Origin: a virus
Lineage: Duplodnaviria > Caudoviricetes
Strand: one strand, 5' to 3'
IMG/VR virus record: IMGVR_UViG_3300027740_000116
Span: 1 to 45,570 of that record
DNA length: 45,570 nucleotides
The translations under genes and the position numbers were made by a program. Below, one piece after another: positions 3,009 through 24,408 of this stretch (position 1 is its first letter; the number at the start of each line of letters is the position of its first letter). The notes under the pieces are model-generated. The model worked only from the letters and a program-made list of their open reading frames with translations. It ran no database searches and was not told the origin of the DNA.

Positions 3009-3907
3009 ATACATCTCTCGCCCTCCCTGCCTTCGACTACTCCGCCCTCGACCGCGCCGACCTGGCAGCCGGCACCCGCCGGCACTACAAAGCCGCGATT
3101 GCCCTGCTCCTGGCGGCGCAGATCGACCCCTTCGACTACTCCGCCCTGGCAAACTACGCCTTCAGCCTGCCGTCCTCGGGTCGCTCCAATCTCAAGGCAG
3201 CTCTCGCCATCATCACCCGCGACTATGTCAACCGCGCCAAGGCCGGCGCCAGTCTCCACAACCATGAGGCCGTGCAGGCGTTCTTGTGGAAGGTGGAGGC
3301 GATGAACGCGGCGATCACCGTCAGCCAGCCCGACGCCGAGAGACAGCCGCACTGGCTTTCCCAGGACCAGGTCAATAACCTGCTCGCCCTCACCAGATCC
3401 AGCCGGGATTACATCGTGCTGGCGGTCCTGCTCGGCGCCGGCCTCCGCCGGGAAGAGCTCGAAAACCTGACCTTCGGCGCCCTGGCGAAGATCCCCTACA
3501 ACGGGAAACTGTGCGAGACCCTCGCCGTCCGCGGCAAAGGTGACAAGACCCGCACGGTCCCGATCTCCGCCCTGCTCGCCTCCCGCATCCGCGCCTGGCA
3601 GGCGGAGACCCACAGCGCGCCCGAGGACCGCGTCGCCCGGCGGATCAGTAAAGCCGGCAAGCCGGGAGAGAGCCTCTCCGCCTATGGTATTTTCCGGATC
3701 GTCCGCAAATACGGCCTCCTGCTCGGCATCCCCGACCTGGATCCACATGATTGCCGGCGTTCCTATGGCAGACTGCTATACGAGGCTACCCATGATATTA
3801 TGCTGGTCAAGGACGTTTTAGGGCATCAGAGCGTCGCCACAACGCAGATTTACATCGGGCTGCAGCTCAGGCTGGGTCTGCCTGAGAACGCCTTCCCGGT
3901 TGGATAA
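3005..3907 (+). CDS. int: Tyrosine recombinase (integrase / XerC-like)
   Basis: Catalytic residues GLRREE (R), RGKGDK (K), HDCRRS (HxxR), LGH and TQIY (Y). Confidence 0.93.
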   Translation: MNTSLALPAFDYSALDRADLAAGTRRHYKAAIALLLAAQIDPFDYSALANYAFSLPSSGRSNLKAALAIITRDYVNRAKAGASLHNHEAVQAFLWKVEAMNAAITVSQPDAERQPHWLSQDQVNNLLALTRSSRDYIVLAVLLGAGLRREELENLTFGALAKIPYNGKLCETLAVRGKGDKTRTVPISALLASRIRAWQAETHSAPEDRVARRISKAGKPGESLSAYGIFRIVRKYGLLLGIPDLDPHDCRRSYGRLLYEATHDIMLVKDVLGHQSVATTQIYIGLQLRLGLPENAFPVG

Positions 3908-3957
3908 CATACCGCCGCCGCCCCATGAGCGGGACGACGACAGAAAGAAGCAGAACG

Positions 3958-4254
3958 ATGAAACCAACAATTGAACAGATTCAGAATGAAATTGAGCAGT
4001 TGAAAGAACTCAAGCCGAAGATTCGGCACTACTCAGCGTTTGGCGACGACAACCGCGCGTCAGTTCAGGCGCAGATCGACGTACTTGAGCGCGGCATGGA
4101 CGAAGATGGAATTTATAACCGATGGGATGAAGGCGAACGAGATATGAATATCCGTGACGCCGCCCTCGGTGCTTTGCAGTGGATGACGAACGGCGAAACC
4201 GACGATGGCGAAACCGGATTAGCAGAGGGCTGGAAAGGCTTAGTGCAAGAGTAA
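3958..4254 (+). CDS. Hypothetical acidic phage protein
   Basis: 98-aa ORF downstream of int. Confidence 0.65.
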   Translation: MKPTIEQIQNEIEQLKELKPKIRHYSAFGDDNRASVQAQIDVLERGMDEDGIYNRWDEGERDMNIRDAALGALQWMTNGETDDGETGLAEGWKGLVQE

Positions 4255-4371: not shown

Positions 4372-4731
4372 TCAAGCGTCGTGCGCGACCTCCGAATTTA
4401 TCCCAGGCGTAGGGCGAAGCAGCAAGCCGCCTTTCTTCACGTGCTCCTGGGTCCACTGGTCAAGACCTTTTATCGTCTCGGGTCTGTACCATTCAAACTG
4501 AGCAACGCGGGAAGGGTCGCAATGGTAGAAATTTGACTGCATCACGCCCTTGCATCCAGATGTAGCACGGCATGAAATCATAAAAGGCGTCACGCCTTCA
4601 TCGGTATCTATTGTGACGACCTCACCGCGGCAGGTGTTGCATGTATACAAATTCATGCGGGCATGACCGGTTGCGGCTCGCTCATCAAGCCATTTTTGGA
4701 CTTCCTTTGACAATACAAATTTCTTACTCAT
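4372..4731 (-). CDS. Hypothetical Zn-binding phage protein
   Basis: YTCNTC...GVTPFMISC...C...EWYRP...EHV..GGLLLR; AAAGGA RBS. Confidence 0.7.
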   Translation of the reverse strand: MSKKFVLSKEVQKWLDERAATGHARMNLYTCNTCRGEVVTIDTDEGVTPFMISCRATSGCKGVMQSNFYHCDPSRVAQFEWYRPETIKGLDQWTQEHVKKGGLLLRPTPGINSEVAHDA

Positions 4732-4774
4732 GGTCTATCCTTTATTTAGGTAACAACATACTTGACGCACAAGC

Positions 4775-4944: not shown

Positions 4945-5220
4945 TCATGGGTAAACTCCATAATTGGGATGACGACGGTCACAGTATTCACAGCCCAAAT
5001 CAGACCAGTCGTAAATATCTTTTCCGCAATGCGGGCAACACTCTCCCCCGTCGTCGTAATCATCGCCCATGCTTGCAACAACAGCAGACTCAGCTTCCCT
5101 GTCGCAAGCATCACAGTAATATGGTTCAGTCAACGGAATCGGAAAGCCTTCATCGTCTAAGTAAAATTCATCGGGGGCTAGGATTTGCTCACTGCAACCA
5201 GAGCATTTTATGTACGTCAT
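4945..5220 (-). CDS. Acidic Cys-rich (four CxxC) passenger protein
   Basis: CSGC, CDAC, CPHC and CEYC; ATGA-coupled to the transposase fragment. Confidence 0.65.
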   Translation of the reverse strand: MTYIKCSGCSEQILAPDEFYLDDEGFPIPLTEPYYCDACDREAESAVVASMGDDYDDGGECCPHCGKDIYDWSDLGCEYCDRRHPNYGVYP

Positions 5221-5645
5221 TGGTTCACCCTATAGGTTTCATCGGCTTCGACTTCGCCGGAGAGTTTTTCAAGAGAACCCTGTTGCATGGCATATCTAAT
5301 CCGATGAAGAACAAACCACGCGGATTTCTGAGTCATGCCGAGAGAGCGCCCGATTTCATAGGAGCTAATCCCGTTCTTGGCATTGGCAATCATCCAAATT
5401 GCACAGAGCCACTTGTCAAGCCCGAGGGCGCTATCCTCGAAGATCGTACCGACCTTGACAGAGAATTGCTTCCTGCAAGCCTTACAGCGCCATATAAGAC
5501 GGGTTTTGATAAACCACTGCTCCTGCCCTCCGCAGTGTGGGCAGATAACCCCATCAGACCAACGGAGGCTAACTATGAACTCATGAGCGTTCTGTTTATC
5601 AGCAAAGTAAATCATGGCTTCTTGAAGTGTCTTAGGCTGATTCAT
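5217..5645 (-). pseudogene. IS1595-family transposase, truncated after the first catalytic Asp
   Basis: RW.DGV.CPHCG...WRCKACRKQFSVKVGTIFEDS Zn-ribbon, KNGISSYEIGRSLGMTQKSAWFVLHRIR HTH, LSGEVEADETY, then a stop 4 codons later. Confidence 0.92.
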
Positions 5646-10856: not shown

Positions 10857-11501
10857 TCAAACCAATACCAATCCGCCGATATTGACGTCGCCCAATGCGC
10901 ACTCTTCGCAAAGCGTGATCTCGACCGATTCCATCATCGGCAAAGTCATGTCTTCATCTGGTCCCATGACTTGGGCAAGCACAACATCGCCGTCCAGCAT
11001 TGCTGCCAATCCGTCCTGTCGCTTGACCGCGCGCAAGTCAATCATGTGCCGTTCGACCTTGAGCACCCAGAAGCCAGGCAGGCCGGTGTGTCCGATCTTC
11101 TTCCCGCAATTTGAGCAGGTTGTATGTTTCCGTAATTCTTCCTCTTTCACTTCAACCTTCGCTTTCTTCAAATTCCGCTCAAGCCGGTTTGCTTGCGCGC
11201 GGGTTACTTTGATAGGGTTAGGACTCATCTCTATCATTGCCTTTCTCGTATCTCTCACCATCCTGCTGATCGCCTTCTGGATCGGCGTGCGTTTCCGGCG
11301 CTCCACCAGCCCGAGCGCGCGCAGGATCTTCCGTTCCTTCGGCAGCCACGCCCCGCCCGAGTTCGCGATCCGATTCAACGTCGCAAAGTTGACACGGTTC
11401 CGGTAGTCTTCCCGGGCGATCGCACGCCAGGAACGCCCGGAGCGATTTTCGCTCAGGAGCCGTTCTGCGAGGTCGAAGGCAGGAACAGTCAGGGTCGGCA
11501 T
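10857..11501 (-). CDS. HTH protein fused to a Zn-binding-like domain
   Basis: GRSWRAIARE...VNFATLNRIA HTH-like N-terminus; CSNC...CEEC C-terminus. Confidence 0.6.
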   Translation of the reverse strand: MPTLTVPAFDLAERLLSENRSGRSWRAIAREDYRNRVNFATLNRIANSGGAWLPKERKILRALGLVERRKRTPIQKAISRMVRDTRKAMIEMSPNPIKVTRAQANRLERNLKKAKVEVKEEELRKHTTCSNCGKKIGHTGLPGFWVLKVERHMIDLRAVKRQDGLAAMLDGDVVLAQVMGPDEDMTLPMMESVEITLCEECALGDVNIGGLVLV

Positions 11502-11556
11502 AGTAGGCAAATGTAACGCCCGTTACAGTGGCAAGGCGGGGTTTGCAGCGTCGATT

Positions 11557-11709
11557 TCACAGTTGCCTCAGCGTCATTTCGACCAGCCGGCGATTGACCG
11601 GCTCGAGACCATCCGGCGGAACCGTCCCGCGCGCCTTCTCCACGTCATAGATGAACTTCGCCATATCGGCGAGCATCACACAAAAGACCAGGGCTTGCAG
11701 GAAGTTCAT
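11557..11709 (-). CDS. Small hypothetical protein
   Basis: 50 aa (MNFLQALVFC...), ATGA-coupled. Confidence 0.4.
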   Translation of the reverse strand: MNFLQALVFCVMLADMAKFIYDVEKARGTVPPDGLEPVNRRLVEMTLRQL

Positions 11710-12059
11710 TTCGCCTCGCACCTTTTCCGCTCGGGGTTATCGTCTGTGCAGCCGCGCCAGATGTAACCGCCATCGATCTCGCACCAGTTGCCAACACAGA
11801 CGCCTTCCCGGCAGTCGCCGCGCCGCAGGCTTCCGACCACCGCGCCGTCCGGCTCGCTGCGGATGTAAACGTCGCCAACAATTGCCAACAGTCTGGCGGG
11901 GGAAAGTGTTGGCACTTCCGTCGGGGCGGGGGGGACTGCCAACACTCCGGCGGTCGGGGTGGGGGAAAGTGTTGGCACGACGCCGGTGATCGCCGGCACG
12001 ATCTCGGGAGAACATGCCGCGAGTGCCAACACTCCCAGGAAGATGATAAGGTACTTCAT
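11706..12059 (-). CDS. Lipoprotein with P/T-rich linker and bacterial SH3-like domain
   Basis: MKYLIIFLGVLALAAC lipobox; VYIRSEPDGAVVGSLRRGD...GNWCEIDGGYIW SH3b pattern. Confidence 0.75.
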   Translation of the reverse strand: MKYLIIFLGVLALAACSPEIVPAITGVVPTLSPTPTAGVLAVPPAPTEVPTLSPARLLAIVGDVYIRSEPDGAVVGSLRRGDCREGVCVGNWCEIDGGYIWRGCTDDNPERKRCEAK

Positions 12060-12328
12060 GGGGCTGCCAACACTTTCTCGTCTGTTGGCAAAACCTCAGC
12101 CAACACAATGCCAACAGTCGGATTCCACTCGGCGCCGCCAAAAATAACCACGACCACCGGATCGCCGTCCTGGTCCTTAGCCGTCACGATCTTCGCCAGC
12201 CCGCGCTTCTGGAGTTCCAGCAGCGGGGACGAGGCCAACGCCAGCAAGACTTCTGTGGGCTCTTCGCCATCTTTCATACGCGGCGCGGTAGAGCTCGAAT
12301 TCTGCGGGGTGGTTCCTTTTACCGACAT
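12056..12328 (-). CDS. Hypothetical protein
   Basis: AAGGAG RBS before ATG 12328 (alternative ATG 12277); ATGA-coupled to the lipoprotein gene; overlaps the upstream ORF. Confidence 0.5.
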   Translation of the reverse strand: MSVKGTTPQNSSSTAPRMKDGEEPTEVLLALASSPLLELQKRGLAKIVTAKDQDGDPVVVVIFGGAEWNPTVGIVLAEVLPTDEKVLAAP

Positions 12329-12587
12329 ATCTGGTCTCCTTCCTGTCCTTGTTCCTTTGGCGCCAGCACACTCCGCGCAGTTCGCCAGTGTTGGCAATGA
12401 TGCGCCACTCCCGGCGGTCAAGTGTTGGCAGTTCCTTCCCATTGCCAACACTTTTTATATCGGTCAGGTTCAAAGTGTTGGCAATGTCGAAACCGAATAC
12501 CTCCGCCGCCCCTACCCTCGGCGCGGAGGCCGGATAGGGTCCGGCGGGACTGTTGGCACTTTCGACTTCCGCTCGAAGTCCTGCCAA
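12177..12587 (-). CDS. Small basic, putative nucleic-acid-binding protein
   Basis: EWRII...VCWRQRNKDRKETRYVGK resembles the W-R...R-Y-(V/L)-G-K beta-sheet DNA-binding pattern; start uncertain. Confidence 0.5.
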   Translation of the reverse strand: MAGLRAEVESANSPAGPYPASAPRVGAAEVFGFDIANTLNLTDIKSVGNGKELPTLDRREWRIIANTGELRGVCWRQRNKDRKETRYVGKRNHPAEFELYRAAYERWRRAHRSLAGVGLVPAAGTPEARAGEDRDG

Positions 12588-13198
12588 CTCTTCTCGCCCT
12601 GCAACTCTCCGAGGATGGGAGCGTTGATCTCCGCCAGTTCCTTGTAGCGCTTCGCCCGGGCCTCCGCCATGCTCTTCTGCGCGTTGGCGTCCGCCTGCCT
12701 GATTGCCTTCTCCGCCTCCCTATTCGTCTTGGCAATGCTGCGCCGCAGGCTTGCCTCTTCGCTGAAGAAATAATGCAGCGTTGCCAGCACTCCCTGGAAG
12801 ACTGCCAGGAACGGCACGACGTACACGACCGTCTTCTGCGCCCACTCCGGGACCATCGCAAAAACGGTGAAGATATCCAGGCTGGCGTTCCGGACGATAA
12901 TAGTCACAGATGCCAGGTCGGTCACGGCGATCGAACCCCAAGCGAGGAGCGTCCCCAGAACCGCGGCGGTCGCCTGGACCTTGTTGCCGAAGTCCTCGAT
13001 CCGGCTCGCCCAGTACAGGCTCGCCCCCTCTGCCAGCAGGACCAGGGCAATCACATACAGCCAGTTGCCGGTGTACGACCAGGCGGCGTAGCCGGTCAGG
13101 CAGCCGGTGACGGTCAGGGCGGCATACCGCAGCCAGTGGCGCGCGAGCCCGCTCCAGAAGTTGTTCCACTTGCTGTCTACCTGATTCATTGTTTCCAT
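12512..13198 (-). CDS. Multi-TM membrane protein with C-terminal coiled coil
   Basis: AAAGGA RBS; about 4 TM segments followed by an A/K/E/R-rich helix. Confidence 0.75.
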   Translation of the reverse strand: METMNQVDSKWNNFWSGLARHWLRYAALTVTGCLTGYAAWSYTGNWLYVIALVLLAEGASLYWASRIEDFGNKVQATAAVLGTLLAWGSIAVTDLASVTIIVRNASLDIFTVFAMVPEWAQKTVVYVVPFLAVFQGVLATLHYFFSEEASLRRSIAKTNREAEKAIRQADANAQKSMAEARAKRYKELAEINAPILGELQGEKSWQDFERKSKVPTVPPDPIRPPRRG

Positions 13199-22899: not shown

Positions 22900-22906
22900 T
22901 TCTGAG

Positions 22907-22979
22907 TTGCGGGGGCAAGATTTGAACTTGCGACCTCCGGGTTATGGGCCCAGCGAGCTGACCACTGCTCCACCCCGCA
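22907..22979 (-). tRNA. tRNA-Met(CAT), initiator-type
   Basis: Full cloverleaf TGCGGGG-TG-GAGC-AGTGGTCA-GCTC-G-CTGGG-CCCATAA-CCCGG-AGGTC-GCAAG-TTCAAAT-CTTGC-CCCCGCA-A; three G-C pairs in the anticodon stem; A11-U24; no encoded CCA. Confidence 0.93.
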
Positions 22980-24381: not shown

Positions 24382-24408
24382 GGCACTGTAACGTTCGGTT
24401 ACAGTGCC
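24382..24408. repeat. Perfect inverted repeat (operator, recombination site or hairpin)
   Basis: GGCACTGTAAC-GTTCG-GTTACAGTGCC; extra half-site GCACTGTAA at 24363. Confidence 0.6.

Follow-up and report, generated by a model that had tools for sequence, protein, structure and literature searches.

A dense DNA motif array inside a membrane-protein module of a temperate phage, and a predicted reader that -1 frameshifting would probably join to the membrane protein

The DNA considered here, referred to below as the window, is a virus record of 45,570 bases that represents a temperate phage, as indicated by a tyrosine integrase gene in the Pfam and PHROGs annotation. Other recognizable genes encode DnaD- and DnaC-like replication proteins, a GH25 endolysin, an SU10-type major capsid protein and a terminase, and among the 55 open reading frames (ORFs) scanned the four genes of the module described here are without a Pfam or PHROG match. 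The host is probably a bacterium of the Anaerolineae, since homologues of the module's membrane proteins sit in genomes of Chloroflexia, Anaerolineales and Anaerolineaceae; filamentous growth is common among Anaerolineae. The window also carries a tRNA-Met gene (22906-22979, minus strand) and, at 5217-5645 on the minus strand and in its vicinity, a transposase-like fragment with a zinc ribbon that we take to resemble IS1595. The module consists of the following features.

12512..13198, minus strand: gene A (zero frame), a 228-residue predicted membrane protein followed by a charged coiled-coil-like helix (hydropathy and sequence)
12536..12542, minus strand: predicted -1 slippery heptamer G GAC CCT, of the relaxed XXXYYYZ form (sequence)
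12499..12530, minus strand: predicted stem-loop 5 nt past the heptamer that includes the TAG stop of gene A (folding z -1.7)
12177..12536, minus strand: -1 frame extension of about 119 residues, a linker plus a basic domain; predicted reader of the array (sequence and structure model)
about 12240-12416, minus strand: basic domain of the reader, RREWRI...RYVGK, predicted as three strands and one helix
12056..12277, minus strand: ORF B, 73 residues, helix plus beta-meander (model, conserved start)
11706..12059, minus strand: gene C, a lipoprotein with lipobox, Pro/Thr linker and SH3b-like domain (homology to the lipoprotein of the related locus L221)
11789..12558, both orientations: array of 14 exact copies of TGCCAACA (exact word count)
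12440-12454 and 12472-12486: perfect 15-bp inverted repeat built from two array sites, with a 17-nt spacer

Gene A shows about four hydrophobic segments by eye and two by a strict hydropathy script, which finds two to four in most related loci. Its protein has no Pfam family at cut-off, and a single-protein search of viral contigs returned no match. The lipoprotein of L221, to which gene C is homologous, matches Pfam SH3_3 (E 5.9e-11). A count of lipoboxes by regular expression (13/34 loci) was discarded, as it missed lipoproteins visible in other loci. Past the lipoprotein gene lies a small hydrophobic ORF (11557-11721, minus strand) that is kept in L221 and is without array sites.

The array was first noticed in a preliminary description of this DNA, and most of what was reported there about the word itself is borne out. 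Exact copies of TGCCAACA start at 11789, 11883, 11937, 12024, 12065, 12109 and 12443 on the plus strand, its complement starts at 11907, 11970, 12083, 12389, 12423, 12476 and 12551, and, as was also claimed, the word is absent elsewhere, with no copy outside 11789-12558 in the 45,570 bases. The four near-matches listed at 11873, 12098, 12582 and 12782 are present, and further ones were found at 12727 and 13031; outside the array, copies with one mismatch occur at background level (49 found, mean 34.9). Five copies extend to the 12-mer AAAGTGTTGGCA, again as described, and the inverted repeat, given as perfect over 14 bp, has the reported 17-nt spacer and is one base longer. In 100 dinucleotide shuffles the word occurred on average 1.34 times and at most four times, against the 14 observed, and no 8-mer of the genome is more clustered, with 14 copies in 1 kb versus five for the best unrelated word. 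Across the family the core of the word is GCCAAC, and the longer consensus can be written approximately as A-n-TGCCAACA-C/G.

The sites fall in two codon phases and in four genes, where they encode the peptides VPT, LPT, IAN, VGN/VGI and VLA/LLA. Draws that preserve the proteins yield far fewer copies, both with the codon usage of the phage (5,000 draws; mean 0.17, maximum 3) and with synonymous permutations within each gene (20,000; mean 1.10, maximum 6). Because the 14 sites exceed all of these protein-preserving shuffles, selection acts on the DNA word, as the preliminary description had proposed.

Related loci were gathered by the protein motif RREWRI-x4-G-x-L-x-G, a pattern that leaves the array word unspecified, and three earlier loci were added. 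This gave 66 sequences including the window, 61 of which match the domain profile; with L181 (a spurious match) and L163 (the window's own record) left out, 59 remain, corresponding to 42 non-redundant loci. These homologous loci likewise carry local arrays. Within the module zone, defined as -400 to +1000 relative to the domain, the exact word occurs 322 times in 49,530 bp, compared with 12 times in 91,816 bp of flanking sequence. Two or more exact sites are present in 40/42 loci and four or more in 36/42, while at least five GCCAAC hexamers occur in the zone in all 42; the two loci without the exact 8-mer have a divergent domain and the bare hexamer. The sites are located mostly between -200 and +700 of the reader core, with no preferred spacing or order across loci. 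The two orientations are nearly equal in number, both family-wide (286 forward, 288 reverse) and in the window (7 and 7), which favours recognition of double-stranded DNA. The upstream membrane proteins form six clusters among 33 sequences and one motif accompanies all six, so the motif is not tied to gene A. Reader distance correlates with the motif flanks (Mantel rho 0.73, 39 loci), a value that is not proof of coupling between reader and motif because it is confounded by shared ancestry. A separate search of viral contigs with a pattern for pairs of sites returned mostly chance matches or tail-fibre repeats; 7/120 such loci had at least four sites, only L090 resembled the module, and none entered the counts.

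The preliminary description treated 12177..12587 as a small basic gene. It is unlikely to be an independent gene that begins at a TTG, and it is best read as the -1 extension of gene A, since its core has no ATG upstream. In all 38 informative loci (four of the 42 had too little upstream sequence) the stop codon of the membrane gene lies inside the basic (RYVGK) frame in a -1 relation. A slippery heptamer is found within the last 15 codons in each of these 38 loci, canonical in 26 and relaxed in 12, versus 173 of 519 control windows from the same genes, 24 of them canonical. The commonest form among the relatives is A AAC CCT; the heptamer of the window is relaxed and not canonical, and relaxed heptamers are common. 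Asn-Pro or Asp-Pro dipeptides are coded as (A/G)AC CCT in 19/22 cases at the gene end versus 0/22 in the gene body. Among 38 other genes of the phage, a canonical heptamer occurs in one and in none together with an open -1 frame; a relaxed or better heptamer occurs in 18, six of which have an open -1 frame. A candidate frameshift stimulator is provided by the modelled stem-loop at 12499..12530, although against dinucleotide shuffles this hairpin is not significant (z -1.3; 21/200 shuffles fold equally well). Downstream of the heptamer in the related loci, hairpins have z below -1.5 in 21/38 cases, with a mean of -1.8.

Coupled initiation of the reader frame instead of frameshifting is unlikely: an ATG is present in only 8/38 reader frames and the start has a Shine-Dalgarno-like word in two of 38, although 33/38 contain an NTG codon of some kind. 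With a conserved -1 overlap and a slippery heptamer under synonymous constraint, it is likely that a programmed -1 frameshift joins gene A to the basic domain. The predicted products are the 228-residue membrane protein and a fusion of about 340 residues with the basic domain at its C-terminus.

The basic domain is rich in Arg and Trp, and its structure model has three strands and one helix (pLDDT 87-93). Three-stranded beta-sheet DNA-binding domains include those of the lambda Int arm, Tn916 Int and AP2, and the predicted topology is like theirs, but the domain of the window is without a significant sequence or fold match. Fold searches gave a best Z of 4.0, to unrelated proteins, and no Foldseek match, and searches of PDB sequences were without a match. 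The Pfam profile of DUF6788 (PF20586) detects 0/54 reader members at E <= 1; an Atlas score of 0.78 for DUF6788 clusters is a lead only. The reader was not found in named genome contigs (two matches were rejected on inspection) or in annotated phages or plasmids, and has no convincing match in 401 sampled Chloroflexota genomes (two borderline, E about 1e-3). It also occurs at the C-terminus of HNH and MUG113/T5orf172 nuclease-like proteins (P0071, P0073, P0076), a possible source of new cassettes.

ORF B is a genuine overlapping gene. It starts inside the last helix of the reader at a conserved TAT-G/TTT-G, and the Tyr/Phe codon that supplies this start is TAT or TTT in 35/37 loci versus 76/123 for other Tyr/Phe codons. 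A predicted complex of the reader with ORF B scored 0.06 and is uninformative.

The exchange of one reader for another is seen most clearly at L221, which was found by an alignment search with gene A and whose gene A is 76% identical to that of the window. L221 has the same slippery site as the window, whereas its -1 domain (YWQW...RPYGG) is unrelated and its array differs. Compared with L127, it is identical at 162/164 positions through the hairpin and at 327/345 in the lipoprotein, and at only 199/483 in the cassette between these flanks. The L221 cassette contains 12 copies of CAGTATC and none of TGCCAACA, whereas that of L127 contains nine of TGCCAACA and none of CAGTATC; two sites of the old type persist in the lipoprotein gene of L221. 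The other phages with the second type of domain (L225, L226/L227 and L234) also have CAGTATC arrays and no TGCCAACA, as well as slippery sites read by eye from the sequence, so that CAGTATC arrays accompany the second domain in 4/4 phages found. The consensus of the second array type is TGCCAGTATCG, and both motif types begin with TGCCA. Profiles of the two reader types show no similarity to each other; type-2 readers have sub-threshold matches to Arm-DNA-bind_1 and Integrase_DNA. The motif thus changes with the cassette that holds the basic domain, and the reader and ORF B form one swappable cassette. Only one swap pair is clean and the type-2 phages number four, so the independent events are few.

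The preliminary description had also listed the product of 10857..11501, an HTH-like gene, among the proteins to be examined for DNA binding. A role for it as binder of the array is unsupported, because the gene is free of sites and is retained in L221, whose array motif differs. Directly upstream of it lies a palindrome TGTAAC-N4/5-GTTACA (11512-11527), with a second copy at 24387-24403 and another in L221 at the equivalent position (4725-4741); the palindrome is a candidate operator for a separate regulator.

Homologues of the membrane protein are found in 46/251 genomes of one Chloroflexota family. Inspection of 31 of these genomic loci, some with weak matches, showed a canonical heptamer in 15, and by eye the -1 continuation is a zinc finger in 10 and a B-like domain in nine. 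The C-terminal half of the B-like extension matches ORF B (hhalign probability 89%, E 2e-6, 8/9 aligned). No dense array was found in any of the 31 loci. That these homologues carry zinc-finger or B-like extensions without a dense array suggests that the reader, rather than ORF B, recognizes the array.

We consider it fairly probable that the array is the binding-site cluster of the frameshift-appended domain, which is itself predicted to bind DNA, and that the module tethers phage DNA to a complex in the membrane. Translation would usually end at the TAG codon and yield the plain 228-residue membrane subunit, while a minority of ribosomes would slip at G GAC CCT and produce the subunit of about 340 residues with the reader, the rate of slippage setting the ratio of structural to DNA-binding subunits. 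The short subunits would form a membrane oligomer in which the frameshifted minority grips the array, with ORF B as a cytoplasmic partner and the SH3 lipoprotein as the wall-side anchor, and the target would be the phage's own double-stranded DNA. The preliminary description had envisaged an array with its own binder and envelope anchors; the general arrangement is retained here, with the difference that binder and anchor are probably one polypeptide joined by frameshifting, which was overlooked at that stage.

As to purpose, the one we favour, with about half the weight of this explanation, is holding or passing an unpackaged phage circle at the septum of a filamentous Anaerolineae host, in the way that Spd proteins serve Streptomyces plasmids; the other half goes to positioning for replication or segregation. 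A more specific and decidedly tentative version is a motor-less septal channel of temperate phages of filamentous Chloroflexota, with DNA specificity plugged in by the -1 frameshift. Here short subunits would form the pore and a few extended subunits would hold the array, a swap of the 500-bp cassette would re-address the channel, and unpackaged genomes would travel along the filament from one cell to the next. A counterpoint to any tether is the integrase, because of which a lysogen needs no tether, together with the lack of a motor: in agreement with what was first noted, ParA and FtsK are absent from the 55 ORFs searched with Pfam and PHROGs, and a six-frame P-loop scan of the window has the DnaC-like loader as its sole credible match.

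Several other explanations have to be weighed. One that requires no motor is autoregulation, in which the reader bound to the array would serve as a repressor of, or roadblock in, its own operon, with the membrane part as a sensor or sequestering device. We regard it as unlikely; all sites do lie inside the operon and mostly surround the reader core, but the promoter region and the 5′ 600 bp of gene A are site-free, the sites being downstream of most of gene A. The 14 to 18 sites in both orientations are presumably more than operators need, and the conserved SH3 lipoprotein is left unexplained.

It is somewhat less likely again that ORF B reads the array and that the -1 domain has another role. 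ORF B travels in the same swapped cassette, and its model resembles half a winged helix in the top Foldseek rows (probability 0.97, E 0.38, 34 columns; not significant). The protein is however hydrophobic and poor in basic residues, it varies more across the family than the motif does, and the nine genomic loci with B-like fusions and no reader have no array, so that B-like domains alone come without arrays.

Membrane proteins paired with lipoproteins in temperate phages recall superinfection exclusion genes, as the module does. The membrane reader might catch incoming motif-bearing DNA of related phages, a swap of the cassette changing the exclusion group, and such swapping fits diversifying selection. 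This reading is improbable, as the many copies of its own motif would make each phage the best target of its own reader, and across 42 divergent loci the core of the motif is conserved and is not escaping.

Recruitment of a host protein by the array, such as a nucleoid, segregation or uptake factor, is very improbable. A GCCAAC core conserved family-wide would be in keeping with it, in the manner of the sps element across plasmids, for which an interaction with host functions has been proposed (PMC4170104), as would the shared TGCCA at the start of both motif types. The motif nevertheless changes with the phage cassette between otherwise near-identical loci, and 10 of 151 candidate host genomes contain a single convergent pair of sites, versus seven for a control pattern; on these two grounds a host-factor array is disfavoured. 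Just as improbable is a role of the repeats as mutually complementary segments of mRNA or single-stranded DNA that tune frameshifting or translation, for although equal orientations permit pairing and the 15-bp inverted repeat is joined by a terminator-like hairpin at 12420-12453, there is no preferred spacing or order across loci, and pairing requires neither that the word stay constant through 42 loci nor that it change along with the domain.

The preferred reading, a membrane complex that grips the phage's own array through a frameshifted subunit, has partial counterparts in known systems. SpdA2 of the Streptomyces plasmid pIJ101 binds sps within its own gene, and synonymous removal of sps from the SpdA2 coding region lowered segregational stability; sps is a 12-bp palindrome in one to three copies, and its reader is a separate protein of 117-163 residues with a putative N-terminal DNA-binding domain (PMC4170104). 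The module similarly has a conserved motif inside its own coding region, but there are 14 asymmetric 8-mers over four genes and no 12-bp palindrome, and the predicted reader is fused by frameshifting to a membrane protein and is phage-borne. SpdB2 is an oligomeric pore former with four transmembrane segments, a coiled coil and homologues on actinophages, and in pSVH1 the genes for SpdB2, Spd79 and SpdB3, together with TraB-clt, present an operon of coupled small genes, wall-binding partners and 8-bp cis repeats (PMC4447253). Coupled small genes and 8-bp cis repeats are likewise features of the module, which also has a predicted membrane protein with a coiled-coil-like helix and a putative wall partner. 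SpdB2, however, binds DNA non-specifically, and the clt repeats are direct and are read by the FtsK-like motor TraB (PMC4447253), whereas the module has no FtsK/SpoIIIE-like translocase and its repeats are in mixed orientation. DUF2637 has no match in the membrane protein of the window at E <= 0.5 by profile comparison, and reaches E 0.0034, below cut-off, in one of 25 homologues (L147). By analogy, the module would work like Streptomyces Spd/sps without being a member of it. Nor can it be placed among ParABS, ParMRC or TubZRC systems, as Pfam, PHROGs and P-loop scans detected no cognate NTPase beside the array.

RicO/ricS of Staphylococcus aureus offers a case in which one polypeptide bridges a specific DNA motif and the membrane with no motor of its own; RicO is chromosomal, has an N-terminal DNA-binding domain and a C-terminal amphipathic helix, and its sites are spread across the origin region (bioRxiv 10.64898/2026.03.06.710092). 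The predicted fusion likewise joins a DNA-motif reader and a membrane anchor without its own motor. Its domain order is reversed and its predicted anchor is multi-pass, and the abstract on RicO does not mention a frameshift. In recoding of the lambda G/G-T type, a conserved slippery site yields two products in a set ratio. The -1 frameshift of phage tail assembly chaperones uses a slippery site near the gene end to make a short and an extended product (PMC3711429). The predicted frameshift of the module resembles this recoding in form only. The module does not lie in a tail operon, and what would be added to its membrane protein is an interchangeable domain predicted to bind DNA. No description of this module was found in the literature covered, which left out most subscription journals.

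Should this reading hold, the module would be a compact system with which a phage seems to direct its DNA to the membrane, and its two natural reader-motif pairs would serve as mutual controls. Beyond tail chaperones, it would be a further predicted case of programmed frameshifting, here one by which a membrane protein of phages and of Chloroflexota genomes would acquire exchangeable domains, and would extend the logic of Streptomyces Spd to another phylum. An old suggestion by which phages would spread DNA inside filaments (PMC4447253) would become approachable.

Some related loci differ from the window in their gene content. In L234 an extra membrane-protein gene (3627-4106) is inserted between ORF B and the lipoprotein and carries four array sites, from which it seems that the array occupies the zone regardless of gene content; L179 also has an extra membrane-protein gene downstream of ORF B, before the lipoprotein. 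L090 (1-628) carries five copies of TGCCAACA where a membrane ORF with a terminal NP meets a different basic domain (RRRAYWKDRSR), which may be a third reader. Membrane homologues in L002, L148, L152, L153, L168, L169 and others have acidic DxDGDG loops, which gene A of the window does not have; some show sub-threshold EF-hand matches, and the loops may bind calcium. Among the array-free genomic loci, L190, L191, L199, L201, L205-L207, L211, L218 and L219 have CxxC zinc-finger -1 extensions, and some loci with zinc-finger extensions adjoin recombinase genes. In four others (L194, L197, L198 and L202), also array-free, a B-like -1 extension is followed by a ParA-like ORF, recognized by a Walker A motif only, with an SH3 lipoprotein between the membrane gene and this ORF in three of the four; these loci may represent a motor-linked version of the module.
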